A stretch of DNA of 62,320 nt, the filler included, from Rhabdomonas costata (taxonomy: Eukaryota), in assembly GCA_019059605.1 (NCBI GenBank). It is 25 parts of 25 records of this genome, joined end to end, with 100 filler letters (N's around TTAATTAATTAA, not from the genome) between each part and the next. Parts side by side here need not be neighbours in the genome. Positions count along the whole stretch, not along the records: positions 32,483 to 34,879 come from JAHMHO010003623.1; 24 more parts are not named here. The stretch is one strand, 5' to 3'. The notes beneath the pieces are model-generated. The model was not told where the DNA came from. It was given only the letters and a program-made list of their open reading frames with translations, and ran no database searches. Position 1 is the stretch's first letter. Every line of letters starts with the position of its first letter. Below, piece after piece: positions 4,901 to 60,569 of this stretch. Both the position numbers and the translations under genes were made by a program.

Positions 4901-5059
4901 NNNNNNNNNNNNNNNNNNNNNNNNNNNNNNNNNNNNNNNNNNNNTTAATTAATTAANNNNNNNNNNNNNNNNNNNNNNNNNNNNNNNNNNNNNNNNNNNN
5001 GCACATGTTTCAGTTCAAAACATCTGCCTTGATCATGAACCACTGAGACGCTTTAGCTT

Positions 5060-30131: not shown

Positions 30132-32482
30132 TGGTAATTGCGCCCATTCATGTTGTGCATCAAGTTGCCCCTGCGTTTTCCCACTTCTGTACCATCTACG
30201 TTGCGATGTTGCGCAGCTTGTAGCGAATAGTGAAGTGTGCTTTCATGTGGTATGCTTGCGGGGTCTTCAGAACAGTTTCTTCAAGCGTTTTTTCAAGTGT
30301 CTTGATAACTATTTTGGAAAAGCAGGCTCTTTCTCTGAATTGGGCAAAAGTCTGGATTTTGAGTAATGCGTTTATTGTGTTCTGAGATCTTCCTGATTTT
30401 ACGCTTCACTCACGTGCCTTTGAGCAATGGTATAACTGTAGCTCCTATGTTGGAACAATATGGTACACAATGTGCCAAACATCTGTCAAGTCTCGGTGGT
30501 TTTATAGAGCGTCTGTGTTCAATTGAGTACAACCATACATAACTTCTTCTGTTTTATCCAATTACATATTTTTAATGGAAACAAACATGCAAGCTTTCTA
30601 TTTATTTTCAATGACTCGGTATCTTTAACCTCTGCGTATGGATACAGTGGAGTTTATTGCTTATGATGCATCCACTGTGAGTTTTGATCGCTATCACATT
30701 TACGTGTTTCTTTTTGGATGCAATCCGTCTTTTCCGAGCACACATTGGAGATGCTACTACAATGGTTACATTACGGAGCACTTACACCTATGAGGGCTAC
30801 TGAAAGTACCACTTTGCTGCTTTATTATAAATGTAGCACACTTTCTTTGTCCCACCTCACGGATTAGTGAGACGCAGTTGTGGCCAAAAGTTAAGGATTT
30901 CGCTGTCACATTGATTTATGTGAAGATTTGGTCTTTACATCTGATTTCCAGGTGTTTGTTTTTTGGAGTCAACTTGTTTGCAAATTGAAAGCAGCACCAT
31001 TACATGATTGATGCAGACACGAAAATGTGCAAGGTAAACACGTTATGTGCTACGCATATAGCTTTGGAAGACAGTATTTCACATTTACGCGTGACCACAT
31101 GCGTCTTGACAGTCTCCCAGACTACATGTCATGTCACCCCTGTTCCTAAGATAAGGAAAACTCGGAGGTGTGGTGCTTTGCATCAGTTTGGCTTGAGAAG
31201 ACTGTGTGGCCGTGTATACAAACGTGTTTTGTTGGAATATCTCGATTTCTTAGTCACCCTTAATATTCACAGCTATCCTTCGTCATTTTCTCCTCACCGT
31301 TGGGCCATAGAGTAAAGTAATTCCGGTTATGTTGTACGTTTGCGTTTCCTATCCGAGCAATATACTGCTTATATTTTTAAGCACACGTTTATGCCTTCGC
31401 TCTTTAAACCACATATCCTCAGCGACACTGGCACGCACTTCCACACTTACATCTGTAATTACGATCGGTATTTACATAATTGTGGTTCTTCCAACGTAAT
31501 AATACGAGCATTTTTTGGGTAGCGGTGTGATTTTGGTGTTCAGCTAAATGTAGATTGGCCTCGAGATCCACCACACGCTTGTTATCTATTACTATTGCTC
31601 TCCGCTTTTGAATGCCAATGCCAAAGTGTCCACTGGTTGGTTAGATCAAACATTGGATCCCAAATGACTATGTCAGTGTGTTAACGCAGTCCAACATGCT
31701 CCTAAAGGCTCTGAACTTCCTCATTTCCACGTTTTTTTATTCATTTAGTTTTATATATCAAATACTCAGGAACTATTTAGTTAAATTTGACACCTAACCT
31801 ATGGGTCATTTCTATATAAAAGTGCACACACAGCGGCACGGACATTGTGGTTTTAGAAAATTGTTTGTGTCAATTAGTACGTACACTGAATAAAATTGAT
31901 TCAAGATTCAATGTACCGGTAGAATTCTCATATTACCCCGAGCAATATGAACATACAATGGGAGCAGAAACAAAAAAAAGAGACATCACATCACATCACC
32001 GGTTCGTCCGTTTCTTCATACAAATGTTATACTACAAACAGTACACTTCCAGCGTTTAATATGATCAGTGTTCATGGCTGGGTCGTCACCATCTAGTTCT
32101 CCTGCTCTAATGTCAGATTGTAGGTTAGAAATGCAAAAAAATCTATTCTTCCGCACCGGAAAGACAATGATCGAGTGGGACGCCCGGAGGTTTGAAAGTA
32201 CAGGCACCTCAGATAGGCGGACCGCATAAAAGCCACCCCCACGCGTTTAGGATCTTGGGCATCGGGGTAACCGCCACGTGCCAACCTTTTTGAGGAATGA
32301 GCTCCGTCCGCGTGGGATAAGGCCGCCGCAGATGGACGAGGACAACGCAGCGCCTGGATGCATAACGGGTACCACACCAACCNNNNNNNNNNNNNNNNNN
32401 NNNNNNNNNNNNNNNNNNNNNNNNNNTTAATTAATTAANNNNNNNNNNNNNNNNNNNNNNNNNNNNNNNNNNNNNNNNNNNN

Positions 32483-32636
32483 TGTGTTGGGGGTGGTGAT
32501 ATGGAGATTTTGCGTCTCTACCGTCACGGGACATATCATCGGCATGACTCTCTGGTTCGAATATGCCGAGAATAACACGGGAAACCCATCTGCGATCATC
32601 ATGGACTGCTGCGGTGATGACCTTTTGACCCAAATG
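32483..32636 (+). CDS. Probable upstream exon of the BLUF gene (unknown domain)
   Basis: Open frame VTGHIIGMTLWFEYAENNTGNPSAIIMDCCGDDLLTQM then GT; phase with the next exon is ambiguous. Confidence 0.35.
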
Positions 32637-33024
32637 GTTGTGACCGTGGTTCCGTGTCGCCTTTAGGAATCCCGAAGTTTTATTCTGCGATTGTCGTGAG
32701 CGTGGACCGTGTGAATGGGTGAGTAGGTGGGTGCTTATGGTGATTGAGTTCTGCCTCCCACTGGGCTTTTGGATATTCGAGAAATCAGCGGCCCCTGAGT
32801 AACGTTTCTCGCACGCAGATACGCGACAAGTTTTTTCATAACACTAAAGATGCGTATAGAACACAGTTCCACGTTATAAACGCAAAAGGTAAAAAAATGT
32901 GAAAAAAATGAAGGAATCCATTTTTGATCATCATGTTTGCCTCAAGACCCCGCATTACCCTGATCGGAACCCTTTTCATGTCAGTTTTGACTTCCGTTTA
33001 GTTTGTTTTCCCTTTTGGCATAAG

Positions 33025-34854
33025 ATCCCTCTTGGGAGATGGCCTCCAGCGACGTGGCCAGCCTGGAGGGCCCTTTTAGCCTCACATATGTCTCCAAGTG
33101 GGCTAAGGGGCTTAGCAGCGCGGATCTCTCGGCTCACATCTCTCGGTGGGAGGCCAAGAATGGGCAGACCCGGCTGACCAGCTGGTTGCTGTGCTCCTGT
33201 TTACCTGAAAGGGCCTTCTTTTTGCTCCGCATCCATCTCGTCATTGTTTCCCGTCGGCAAGGATACCCACGTCCAATCGTTGAGTTTTCATTCCTGTATC
33301 ACTTTCTGGCTACGCACTCCGCTGCTGTACATTGGCTTTTTCCTTTGCTTTTCTTCCAGGCAAACTGTGAACATCGCTTTTGTGGAAGTGTTTCTGCCAA
33401 GGGCAAAAGAAATCGTTGAGTATTGCCTTAAGAGTTCATGAATCGGACAAAAAAGGCGAAAAATTTGAAGTCAGCTACTTTCTGTTTGTATAATCCTGGA
33501 TGAATCACTGACTCGTTGGTGGCTGGGACATCGCGAAAGTCTTAGCTCCGTTGGGGCACTTTTGCTCTGCAGGACGGGGTTGTTTTAATTTCGGGGGATT
33601 CACAGCCACCGTTCATGGGGTGGTCGCGCGCGTGGGGTTTGCTCCACAAAAGCCAATCTGTCGACGAGATTGCACGGTTTGCACTGGTGCAGTAACCCCG
33701 TACCTTTCAGGTTGATCATCACTGAAGTGGGGGCGCATCGACAGTATGATTGGCGTTTCGTCTGCCTGAAAGACCGGCGGTTGCCTTTTTGCAGCTTGGT
33801 CACGATGGAGGAGGTGGTGGTGCAGACTCTCGAAGGTCCCAGGGCTGTGGTGGAGGCCACCTTTGAGAGGATTCGCTCCAGCCCACTTCATCAGGACCAC
33901 ACCGTGCTCAGCCAGGTGGGCCATTTTTGATGAATGCCCGTTGCTCAGCTTTGCATATGCACACCTAAAAACAGTTTCGTACTCGCCCTGACAGTGTGTC
34001 ACGGGGAACCCTTGTTTTGCCCTCTCTCACAGTTCGACTCCTCCGTTTTATTCTCGTGGAAGATGGCCTGCTCTGTTCACGCAGCACCCATGGCGCGGTG
34101 ATCTTAGGGGCCTCTTGTATTTCTTTTGGAGGGGAGGCGTAAAAGGTTAGCACCGCTAAACGCGTAGAAGTTAACGGAGCGTCCTCCCATGGCACTTCCT
34201 AGCCCATCCGCCCCCTCCGGCCGCGCCGCGAATTGCCTCCACCCCTAAAACGGCCCGGCCCTGTCCCATTCGTCTGTCAATGCCCAGCAACGACAAAAAC
34301 AATTCCAAAATTGGGGCATGCACTAAGATAGATCCCCTCTAATTTCTCCTCCTTCTCACTCATCCGCCTTTGTCTCACAACGGGCAGAGAAGCATCGAAG
34401 ATCGGGGCTTCCCAGGCTGCAGCCTTCAGTGGCTGCCCATCGAGACCACGGACTACACGTACCCCTTGGTCCAGGTACTGCCCTTGCTGCCCTTGATTCT
34501 TCCCTGCCGCGGTGCCCTCTGCTTGAATTGCGGGTGCGGTCGAGAAAGCTTGCAGCTTTCGTTCCGATTTTCCCTGTTGGTATCTGCTTCTTTTTCCGTG
34601 GTGGAACCCCACCCATGGGTTTCGGGTTGGAACCCCGCACAAATTCGCTCCCTTTCTCCTCTATGCCGCTCCTGTCCTCCCCTCCCCCTCTTTCCTTTCG
34701 TGACCTTTGGATACGTTCGTTTTGCTGTGCTCCGGCGGGGGTCAGGTCTTCTCCGCGATGGGAGTGCAGCTGGCGAAGTTGGTGCAGTTCTGTCCGCTCG
34801 GGGTGCGAGCGATGGTGGTGCGCGGGGTTGACCCCTTGCGGGCTCCTCCTGCCG
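33025..34854 (+). CDS. BLUF domain plus PAC-type linker (photoactivated adenylyl cyclase-like protein), partial; exons 33025(or 33039)-33184, 33795-33915, 34388-34474, 34746-34854
   Basis: Spliced (GT-AG, phases 2/0/0): FSLTYVSKWAKGLSSADLSAHISRWEAKNGQTRLTSCLVTMEEVVVQTLEGPRAVVEATFERIRSSPLHQDHTVLSQRSIEDRGFPGCSLQWLPIETTDYTYPLVQVFSAMGVQLAKLVQFCPLGVRAMVVRGVDPLRAPPA. It fits the BLUF consensus (L.Y.S...N...T..L.....Q.LEG...V.....RI....H...R.F) followed by the P..V.....G..PL helix linker of PACs. Confidence 0.85.
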
Positions 34855-34986
34855 GTCTCTGCCAGTCATAAACCCACCCNNNNNNNNNNNNNNNNNNNNN
34901 NNNNNNNNNNNNNNNNNNNNNNNTTAATTAATTAANNNNNNNNNNNNNNNNNNNNNNNNNNNNNNNNNNNNNNNNNNNNGTGTGGT

Positions 34987-35784
34987 GTGGATCTGGTTTC
35001 TGTCACAAACGGAACGGCATGGGGCCGCGCCTCTCGGGCGTCGCCCGTGTTTTGCTTCCCGTGGGAGTTCGCCTTCGACGTCCCCTCAGGAAGCCAGCCG
35101 ATCCTCCTGCTCCTGCCCTTGCAGCAAACCGGGACGTTCCACTACAACTACACCCTAACCCGCAGCCTTCTACAGCAGCACTACCACCACCACCACCCCA
35201 GCAAGGCCAGGACCCAGGGCCCTCTTTTCGTTGCCCTGCACCTGCGGCTGGGGGACGTCCTGATCTCCCGGGGGTACCGCTGGAAGTACACCGGCCCGGA
35301 GTTCTACCTTGCCGTGGTCGGGCTGATCCTTGCGGCCATTCCCCCCTCCTGTGGCACTTTCAGGATCTTCACGGATGAGCCTACTCACAAGGACGTGCGT
35401 GCTCTGAGGGCGGGCATGCTGTCACGTTTTGGGGTTACCCTTACCGGGGCGCTCGCCAAGAAACCCGCAGCGGTGGCTGCGCGGCAGTCAATGGACTTTC
35501 ACCAGCTTGCCACCGCGGATGTCTTGGTGGTAGGTACCAGTGGGTTCTCTAGACTGGCAGGCGTGCTGTGCCGTGGGGTGATCCTGGCTCCACCTCTTGG
35601 GGTGCAGCCTCTGGAAGGCCTATCGGGGGTGGTCTCGTTGCCGCGAAGAAGACTGCGCGCTACCCCGTCAGTGTTCGGCAGGGTGGTGAATGACACCCTC
35701 AAAGCAGCGTTTGGGAGCCGGCTGCGGCAGTGTGAAGCTGATGCTTCGGTGAGGAAAGGGAACGGGTCATCCGCGGTGGGGTAG
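34987..35784 (+). CDS. O-fucosyltransferase-like / GT11-like glycosyltransferase, 5'-truncated, intronless here
   Basis: VALHLRLGD (GDP-fucose-binding HxRxGD), FRIFTDE, DFHQLATADVLVVGTSGFSRLA. Confidence 0.75.
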   Translation: MDLVSVTNGTAWGRASRASPVFCFPWEFAFDVPSGSQPILLLLPLQQTGTFHYNYTLTRSLLQQHYHHHHPSKARTQGPLFVALHLRLGDVLISRGYRWKYTGPEFYLAVVGLILAAIPPSCGTFRIFTDEPTHKDVRALRAGMLSRFGVTLTGALAKKPAAVAARQSMDFHQLATADVLVVGTSGFSRLAGVLCRGVILAPPLGVQPLEGLSGVVSLPRRRLRATPSVFGRVVNDTLKAAFGSRLRQCEADASVRKGNGSSAVG

Positions 35785-59600: not shown

Positions 59601-60569
59601 GAGATGTAAGATCAAGATGAACGTAGCCATCGCCGATTTGCGCGCTACTCACCACGAAGAAATTACTGAATAGGACGCAATCGGGACATCTATCAATACA
59701 GAGACAGAAGGAACTCATGTCAAGACAAACACGCCTCATTAGGATCTTCAAAATAACCTAGTGGTACCACCGCAGGATAGTACTTATAACTACTGTGGCA
59801 AGTTTGGGCACTTCATCAGAAAATGTCCCNNNNNNNNNNNNNNNNNNNNNNNNNNNNNNNNNNNNNNNNNNNNTTAATTAATTAANNNNNNNNNNNNNNN
59901 NNNNNNNNNNNNNNNNNNNNNNNNNNNNNGCGAATGGTTGTTACATCTGGAAGTGTGTTAATCTCAGTGTGGGCTTGACATTTCCTACCTGCCGAAAAAG
60001 AACGAACGAAATACTGCCAGTGTGCACTAGAAAATGCCGTTGGTATACCAGATTTTTGGTTTCGAGGAGTTTTGCAAACATGAATATCCGGGGATCTCTT
60101 TTACCACCTGTAGTTGAGGACACCTGGATGGCACAGAAGGAAGAAGGAATGTCTGCAACTATCAGTCGGAGACAAAGTACAACAACCCCAGACTTTGTTT
60201 TTCCATCTTCAGGAGCTGGCGGGCCTTAACAAGCCGCTAGATGCATAATAGATGCGTAATGTAGTTTGGATAGATGCTCCTTCTGAGGAGATGAAAGCGT
60301 GTTCGCAGTTGCGTTTCTGTTGGTGTCGATTGCTCCAAATAATCACCGCTATCGTGTATTTCTGGTGCTTCCGCGCCAAATCCATTGCGTTGGCCTTCTA
60401 TTTTCTTGGTTGACCACTCCGGTGGAAGTTTAACTACCAAAGCTTTGCTCTTTCCGGAAGGCTAGAGGGCTCAGTTTTCAAACACAGCCGCATCTTGCAG
60501 CTGCAGGAAAGTTGGGGAGATAATTTTGTGATATAAAGACCACTAAAAAGGGTTATAAATTAAAATAGA

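Follow-up and report, generated by a model that had tools for sequence, protein, structure and literature searches.

Does a BLUF domain that keeps the Tyr, Gln and Asn of its flavin pocket, and has lost the tryptophan and methionine of the beta-5 switch, still act as a light sensor? The question is raised by a gene of Rhabdomonas costata (GenBank assembly GCA_019059605.1). The gene lies on the plus strand of a 2.4-kb contig (JAHMHO010003623.1), which occupies positions 32483-34879 of the window, the 62,320-nucleotide stretch of joined contigs that was analyzed. Its product is known as a transcript-derived protein, here called RCo035041. The N-terminal domain of RCo035041 is a genuine BLUF domain by both sequence and fold. 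The explanation that best suits its residues, for which we see an even chance, is that the protein may be a BLUF sensor that binds flavin and descends from a photoactivated adenylyl cyclase (PAC); without the canonical Trp/Met switch, it would pass its signal on by way of a pseudo-cyclase scaffold and not by cyclic AMP (cAMP).

Gene structure and identity of the BLUF domain

The gene was read from the sequence between 33039 and 34854. Four exons, joined by their coordinates, give 154 codons, and all introns run from GT to AG.

33039..33184, plus strand: exon 1, from the ATG to a TG followed by the gt of the intron; residues 1-48 and two bases of Cys49
33185..33794, plus strand: intron 1, GT..AG, 610 bases, phase 2; the junction yields Cys49 as in RCo035041
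33795..33915, plus strand: exon 2, residues 49-89; beta-2, beta-3, alpha-2 and beta-4
33916..34387, plus strand: intron 2, GT..AG, 472 bases, phase 0; encloses a rejected alternative exon
34388..34474, plus strand: exon 3, residues 90-118; the end of beta-4, a loop and beta-5
34475..34745, plus strand: intron 3, GT..AG, 271 bases, phase 0
34746..34854, plus strand: exon 4, coding for the alpha-3 linker helix and the handle motif F-C-P (residues 119-154 and one base)

Exon 1 codes for beta-1, alpha-1 and the L-T-S motif and covers positions 3-42 of the Pfam BLUF profile; it holds Tyr17, Trp21, Trp37, Asn41 and Ser48. Exon 2, with Gln59, LEGP, Arg74 and S78-P-L-H81, is 98% identical to RCo035041 and alone scores 28.5 bits on Pfam BLUF. 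Exon 3 carries Arg95, Phe97, Cys100 and Leu102 and aligns without gaps to OaPAC and to the BLUF profile, while exon 4 aligns to alpha-3 of OaPAC. A GT donor follows directly after exon 4. With the contig ending at 34879, the remainder of the gene is cut off, and the model in the window stops at codon 154.

A search with exon 2 returned a single protein, P0001 (198 amino acids [aa]), which is EP00906_Rhabdomonas_costata_P024370, or RCo035041. The spliced window and RCo035041 have the same exon chain and agree at 152 of 154 residues. According to the genome paper, the RCo protein set was predicted by TransDecoder from transcripts assembled with Trinity (PMC8219788). Since RCo035041 comes from that transcriptome and matches the exon chain, the gene is transcribed and spliced as read; its expression rests on this transcriptome-derived protein set. 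The transcript is 3′-partial, because it stops where its relatives continue. Two residues differ in the genomic copy. Pro12 replaces Leu (33072-33074) and is the sole difference in exon 1, and Leu136 replaces Pro in exon 4 (34797-34799). Allelic variation, a paralogous copy or, at 10-20x coverage, a mistake in the assembly could account for these mismatches. The draft genome is very fragmented (N50 of 1194, longest contig of 8093 bases; PMC8219788), in agreement with the window.

The residues on which the argument turns are placed as follows.

33087..33089, plus strand: Tyr17 in LTYVS, the photocycle Tyr (AppA Tyr21, OaPAC Tyr6)
33099..33101, plus strand: Trp21, where the commonest residue in BLUF domains is Ala
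33147..33149, plus strand: Trp37 in WEAKN (helix alpha-1), equivalent to AppA Ser41
33159..33161, plus strand: Asn41, at the position of the flavin-binding Asn
33180..33182, plus strand: Ser48 in L-T-S, for the Gly of I-T-G
33823..33825, plus strand: Gln59 in VQTLEG, the photocycle Gln
33880..33891, plus strand: S78-P79-L80-H81, for D-x-R-H
34403..34405, plus strand: Arg95
34418..34426, plus strand: Cys100-Ser101-Leu102 in RGFPGCSL, for the beta-5 Trp-x-Met switch

RCo035041 matched the Pfam BLUF family (PF04940) over profile positions 1-91 of 92, with 64.6 bits (cut-off, 25) and an E value of 9e-18, well beyond a chance resemblance. Its best relative of solved structure by sequence was OaPAC. 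The phmmer alignment covered residues 9-159 of RCo035041, past the BLUF domain (E value, 8.8e-13), and ran ungapped through BLUF. Here Y17, Q59 and N41 pair with OaPAC Y6, Q48 and the Asn of Q-K-N. W37 falls on a Ser, S48 on the Gly of V-T-G, S78 and L80 on the Asp and Arg, and C100 and L102 on Trp90 and Met92. A first-pass annotation of this DNA, made from the sequence, had described Tyr, Asn and Gln as retained, and they are, in the joined exons as well as in the OaPAC alignment. The substitutions that it listed (W37, LTS, SPLH and C100-S-L102) are likewise all present in the DNA and in RCo035041.

The fold was modeled with AlphaFold2 (AF2) from 125 aligned sequences. The BLUF core of RCo035041 had a predicted local distance difference test score (pLDDT) of >90 and showed the b-a-b-b-a-b-b topology plus alpha-3, with strands at residues 12-21, 47-53, 56-64, 81-92 and 103-107 and helices at 27-43, 65-77, 114-133 and 136-143. 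Foldseek matches to the model were led by OaPAC 9f1w (E value, 8.7e-12) and bPAC 5m2a, followed by TePixD, PixD, AppA and BlrB; the probability was 1.00 for OaPAC, bPAC, TePixD, AppA and BlrB. On alpha-3, the hydrophobic residues F120 and M123 stand at OaPAC L111 and L115, and F133 stands at the handle residue Tyr125. The relay feature of the family, a conserved beta-5 Met with a semi-conserved Trp, is absent from RCo035041, which carries L102 and C100. The missing Trp and Met concern the relay and not the BLUF fold.

One way to recover a canonical domain would be to splice in a different exon within intron 2, which the first-pass annotation had suggested might restore W-x-M.

34033..34101, plus strand: alternative exon, FDSSVLFSWKM to a stop; not in the gene product

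The candidate is preceded by a CAG acceptor (34030-34032) and encodes F-S-W-K-M in frame. It is absent from RCo035041, lacks the invariant Arg95, and hits a stop after 23 codons, which would drop the linker and everything beyond; its spacing is also two residues short. The two exons were compared on a BLUF profile of 120 relatives from which RCo035041 and its subfamily had been left out. With exon 3, the model scored 126.0 bits and aligned through beta-5, whereas with the alternative exon it scored 94.9 bits and the alignment ended at residue 89, so that exon 3 contributes 31 bits and the alternative exon 0. The subfamily relatives described below also have Leu and no beta-5 Trp. Because the transcript-derived protein, the profile score, the stop and the relatives all oppose it, the proposal that this is a canonical BLUF after all is contradicted, and we regard it as the least probable of the explanations considered.

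Substitutions across BLUF domains and a subfamily of three

How unusual the substitutions are was assessed in a survey. An exhaustive HMMER search found 649 proteins at an E value of ≤0.001, of which the best 150, RCo035041 among them, were surveyed. With the addition of P0153, a cluster mate of one of them, this gave 163 BLUF stretches in 151 proteins (139 with one stretch and 12 with two). Position 17 was Tyr in 161 of the 163 stretches, the other 2 being gaps; position 41 was Asn in 161 and position 59 was Gln in 158. At the substituted positions the counts were Gly 150 and Ser 8 (position 48), Asp 152 and Ser 11 (position 78), Arg 147 and Leu 8 (position 80), Trp 130, Leu 10, Phe 8 and Cys 6, including RCo035041 (position 100), and Met 139 and Leu 14 (position 102). 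Position 21 was Ala in 91 and Trp in 6. At position 37, four residues before the Asn, the first-pass annotation had taken Ser as the standard residue. Trp37 does pair with a Ser of OaPAC, but the position is only semi-conserved, with Ala (68) slightly ahead of Ser (64) and Trp in 11.

Taken singly, each substitution occurs in 4-20% of the 163 domains. Scored at six positions, 110 domains had no deviation, 23 had one, 14 had two, 9 had three and 6 had four; only RCo035041 had six. The first-pass annotation had made its reading depend on the substitutions being uncommon in photoactive BLUF domains. They recur one at a time at the rates given, and the combination of all six was found in RCo035041 only.

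Several of the changes occur in other settings. In PAC-like proteins of euglenozoans, the beta-5 Trp of the second BLUF domain is often replaced by Leu, and the Met in some cases by Leu or Val. Trp37 is also present in two otherwise canonical short BLUF proteins (P0032 and P0045), S-P-L-H in P0066, and C-x-L in P0112, P0061 and P0120. The last three are short BLUF proteins of 137-139 aa with Cys-x-Leu on beta-5. In two of the three, His stands in for the photocycle Gln, and S-P-L-H recurs in P0112. Eight surveyed domains, for example the second BLUF of P0018, are changed or missing at one or more positions of the Tyr-Asn-Gln triad. The subfamily of RCo035041 keeps all three.

Trp37 was associated with a lost beta-5 Trp (8/10 versus 24/152; Fisher P = 3.6e-5, kinship ignored), and this held when the subfamily was removed (5/7 versus 24/152; P = 0.0024, again ignoring kinship). 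The corresponding counts for a lost beta-5 Met, likewise uncorrected for kinship, were 6/10 versus 17/152. The association with the Trp hints at a swap of the aromatic residue of the pocket. Both BLUF domains of P0009, an adenylate cyclase of Thecamonas trahens (1335 aa), combine Trp37 with Phe at the beta-5 Trp position, and one of them has His for Gln.

Two proteins are whole-length relatives of RCo035041: P0006 (563 aa, from the Marine Microbial Eukaryote Transcriptome Sequencing Project [MMETSP]; its cluster mate P0153 has 581 aa) and P0010 (546 aa). Over residues ~10-198, RCo035041 matched P0006 with an E value of 1e-25 and P0010 with an E value of 4e-19, at 30-32% identity. Invariant in the three members are Y17, W21, R36, W37, N41, S48, Q59, LEGP, H81, R95, L102, F133-C-P and R165. 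None of the three has a beta-5 Trp, and all have V-A-x-R-L at the start of the next domain. They also share an insertion of ~8 residues in the cyclase domain that was found in no PAC aligned with them by MAFFT. Position 74 is Arg or Lys across the subfamily; Arg74 corresponds to a flavin contact in PixD. By contrast with these common features, S78, L80 and C100 are specific to Rhabdomonas: P0006 and P0010 carry D-D/G-R-H, and position 100 varies in the subfamily between Cys, Leu and a third state that the alignments give either as Gln or as a gap.

The variability of position 100 bears on a proposal in which Cys100, beside the flavin, would form a LOV-like adduct or read the redox state. A Cys does stand at the beta-5 Trp position and recurs there in the six surveyed domains counted above. 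A thiol sensor nevertheless seems very unlikely, as the Cys is not kept in the subfamily. The first-pass annotation had suggested redox or a ligand as another input for a flavin-free domain; for Cys100, such a role is for the same reason unlikely to be the function of the family.

When only the BLUF domain was used (163 rows, 113 columns), a quick tree left 95 of 159 inner branches open. Because it was too poorly resolved to place RCo035041, a tree of 49 rows and 210 columns, covering BLUF, the linker and the start of the next domain, was used instead. It put the three members on one side of a branch with a Shimodaira-Hasegawa-like approximate likelihood ratio test (SH-aLRT) value of 79.6. Since W21, W37, S48, L102 and R165 are common to relatives at 30-32% identity, these residues appear to be old and held by selection.

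Could the substitutions instead be the marks of a decaying PAC paralogue that drifts without function? RCo035041 is the most deviant BLUF of the 163, its transcript is partial, and in the genomic copy an otherwise invariant Leu is replaced by Pro12. But the four exons are open with intact GT-AG borders, the gene is transcribed, five of the unusual residues are common to two distant relatives, and AF2 folds the core with high confidence. Decay is therefore improbable on this evidence. Given that the gene is expressed and that Y/N/Q, W37, S48 and L102 are invariant at ~30% identity, the comparison leans toward a functional, constrained domain.

The output part and the surroundings of the gene

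What the BLUF domain is joined to was examined through the subfamily. A subfamily profile matched OaPAC over 12-290 (E value, 2e-23) and bPAC over 39-342, so the homology runs through the class III cyclase domain. Catalytic residues were compared in these profile matches and against 11 PAC-type sequences aligned by MAFFT. The first metal-binding Asp (OaPAC Asp156, as counted from the alignment) is Arg in all three members, at Arg165 in RCo035041. In P0006 and P0010, the substrate Lys is replaced by Gly, the second metal-binding Asp by Thr or Ala, and the Asn and Arg of G-D-A-V-N-x-x-x-R by Thr and Trp. The Pfam family Guanylate_cyc was not detected in P0006 or P0010 even at an E value of 10; the Pfam cyclase domain was detected in 13 of 20 long matches scanned. 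In the AF2 model of P0006, a cyclase-like fold spans residues ~161-320, at a pLDDT of 55-78. RCo035041 itself reaches only ~34 residues into the cyclase domain, to residue 198.

Judged by these replacements, the output part is a PAC-derived pseudo-cyclase, and since its catalytic residues are replaced the protein is not to be classed as a PAC enzyme. Light-stimulated cAMP synthesis is predicted to be absent. In the second cyclase domain of P0004, a PAC-like protein of 718 aa, the first metal-Asp position is occupied by Asn.

The full-length relatives continue beyond the cyclase-like fold. Residues 489-562 of P0006 form a helical C-terminal domain in the AF2 model (pLDDT, 71-90), and a conserved C terminus is also present in P0010. 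This domain matched no Pfam family above noise and no solved structure by sequence. A language-model comparison gave it a likeness of 0.91 to EF-hand pairs, with few features in common, and this serves as a lead only.

The window is a chain of ~25 parts of ~2.4 kb each, seemingly ordered by size, with the linker N44-TTAATTAATTAA-N44 at every ~2.5 kb.

2401-2500, 4901-5000 and onward to 59830-59929, no strand: artificial linkers along the window
32383..32482, no strand: artificial linker N44-TTAATTAATTAA-N44, left end of the BLUF-gene contig
34880..34979, no strand: artificial linker, right end of the BLUF-gene contig, where the gene is cut off

Because the window consists of joined contigs, genes across a linker are not real neighbors. 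On the minus strand of the BLUF contig, three open reading frames (≥127 aa) were tested and gave no Pfam match, and an Rfam scan of the contig found no match. The next contig has a 267-aa open frame on the plus strand (34981-35784) with a His-rich run and an H-L-R-L-G-D motif. By eye this frame resembles glycosyltransferases of the fucosyltransferase type; it had no Pfam match at an E value of 0.01. Since a linker separates the two, it is unrelated to the BLUF gene.

A proposed relay and its place among BLUF systems

In OaPAC, rearrangement of the Gln is described as freeing Met92; Trp90 and Met92 then swap, beta-5 slides, and the change runs through alpha-3 to the cyclase, and the W90-M92 switch is held to be pivotal for signaling (PMC13740344). 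AppA and PixD likewise relay their signal through a beta-5 Trp/Met switch. In RCo035041, the Tyr-Gln-Asn set that is kept would allow flavin still to be bound and the Tyr/Gln photochemistry still to run, probably with an altered spectrum and recovery and with a non-canonical relay. Leu102, W37 on alpha-1, W21 at the end of beta-1 and Ser48 stand in place of the switch, and Trp37 possibly assumes the aromatic role of the lost beta-5 Trp. From there the change would travel along alpha-3 to the dead cyclase fold. Output might then be given by protein contacts of the pseudo-cyclase, by analogy with E. coli BluF and its dead EAL domain. Flavin binding, a light response, dimer formation and output by protein contact are thus what we infer for this protein.

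A more detailed version is tentative and would be a good deal less probable. It proposes a working photoreceptor in which the beta-5 switch was given up, the pocket Trp moved to alpha-1, and another relay leads to the dead cyclase, possibly with an EF-hand-like tail. The moved Trp finds support in the way that Trp37 accompanies the loss of the beta-5 Trp.

Several points weigh against a light sensor of this kind, and some against the subfamily on which it is built. In PixD, the M93A mutation is reported to keep the red shift while the conformational change of the protein is lost (PMC5899715); by analogy, replacement of Met by Leu, which removes the sulphur that pairs with Gln, could uncouple photochemistry from output. 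Two bulky Trp residues on elements that face the pocket, the change of Gly48 to Ser and, in this species, the absence of Asp78 and Arg80 could make flavin binding weaker or prevent it. R. costata is described as a colourless osmotroph (PMC8219788), and for that reason a need for light sensing is not evident. The subfamily consists of three independent sequences. No further members were found among the best 150 of the 649 matches of the exhaustive search. A word-based search with the subfamily alignment found only P0006 among 8000 scored candidates, and one with RCo035041 found RCo035041 itself and one weak match (P0154). The poorly resolved BLUF-only tree does not group RCo035041 with P0006 and P0010 and puts it beside P0066 and P0112, which have S-P-L-H (SH-aLRT, 86). 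The genomic copy has Pro12 where RCo035041 and all relatives carry Leu. Finally, the cyclase part of this gene was seen to residue 198, in the transcript and outside the window.

Some of these points also favor a different explanation, a flavin-free BLUF-like domain that retains its fold for a structural or regulatory task, with the pocket filled by Trp21 and Trp37 or by another ligand and with no light sensing. The six deviations in pocket and relay are the most among the 163 domains, Trp21 replaces a residue that is usually small (Ala in 91), Trp37 replaces Ala or Ser (132 of 163), the host is colourless and the output enzyme is dead. There is also a precedent among flagellates. Flavin adenine dinucleotide and flavin mononucleotide were bound only weakly by DYBLUP/MOT7, and the authors of that study question whether flavin is its natural ligand (PMC7909887). 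Like RCo035041, the dynein-associated ciliary proteins DYBLUP/MOT7/TEX47 are BLUF proteins of eukaryotic flagellates whose flavin occupancy is in doubt (PMC7909887). They differ from it in architecture and have no cyclase-like part; RCo035041 gave no match to the TEX47 Pfam family at E values up to 1. Other evidence speaks against an empty pocket. Flavin chemistry is the only role known for Tyr17, Asn41 and Gln59, yet the subfamily keeps all three unchanged at ~30% identity, unlike the eight related domains where the triad is changed or missing. Position 74, a flavin contact in PixD, is kept as Arg or Lys. Trp37 is compatible with a normal pocket, because it is found in the canonical P0032 and P0045. 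We therefore consider a flavin-free domain possible and rather unlikely, and the flavin-binding sensor remains the explanation that we prefer. The first-pass annotation, which had offered a retuned photoreceptor or a flavin-free domain, is partly supported, the evidence leaning toward a functional, constrained domain; the PAC context with its dead cyclase had been missed.

Among known systems, OaPAC (4yus, 5x4t and 9f1w) and bPAC (5m27) are the closest solved relatives by sequence and fold. The order of BLUF, alpha-3 helix, (Y/F)-x-x-P handle and cyclase fold is the same, and Tyr, Asn and Gln are kept. Unlike in OaPAC, W90 and M92 have become Cys and Leu, Ser has become Trp37, Gly has become Ser48, and the catalytic residues of the cyclase are replaced. 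The full-length relatives P0006 and P0010 also differ from OaPAC and bPAC in an extra C-terminal region of ~200 residues.

The tandem PAC-like proteins of euglenozoans (Euglena gracilis, E. stellata and the diplonemid Rhynchopus) belong to the same phylum and are top scorers among the best 150 of the 649 matches. They match best in their second BLUF and linker (E values of 8e-18 for P0004 and 5e-16 for P0005), and these second BLUFs, too, often lack the beta-5 Trp. In contrast with the F1-C1-F2-C2 order of PAC alpha/beta, the chains of P0006 and P0010 each contain a single BLUF and a single dead cyclase fold; RCo035041 was seen to residue 198. On the 210-column tree the subfamily stands apart from the euglenozoan PACs. 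The tandem BLUF-cyclase arrangement also occurs outside euglenids, in P0005 of the diplonemid Rhynchopus euleeides (807 aa).

The BLUF relay of E. coli BluF is canonical. BluF (YcgF) has a degenerate EAL domain and is reported to act by binding BluR (PMC3509220). Like RCo035041 and its relatives, it joins a BLUF domain to an enzyme fold without catalysis; the likeness is one of working, with kinship in the BLUF domain only. It differs in being bacterial and in having an EAL rather than a cyclase fold as output. BlrP1, the BLUF-EAL protein of Klebsiella, also lacks the beta-5 Trp, having Thr there (PMC4630285), and it matched RCo035041 in the search of solved structures; unlike RCo035041, it keeps the Met and an active output enzyme. 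Our literature search found no paper on a BLUF domain joined to an inactive cyclase and none on Leu at the Trp position in the second BLUF of Euglena PAC-alpha. The step past known biology is modest, a variant within the BLUF/PAC world.

A conserved lineage of BLUF domains with Tyr, Gln and Asn in place, Leu instead of Met, a beta-5 without Trp and a Trp on alpha-1 would be a natural test of whether photochemistry and signaling are separable or whether another relay exists. Such variants could offer new spectral or kinetic properties for optogenetic tools. If the moved Trp and the other relay are real, light signaling in a non-photosynthetic euglenid would have an output that does not involve cAMP. 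The gene also shows that a primarily heterotrophic euglenid has retained a descendant of PAC without its enzymatic function, which bears on the origin and fate of the euglenozoan PAC.

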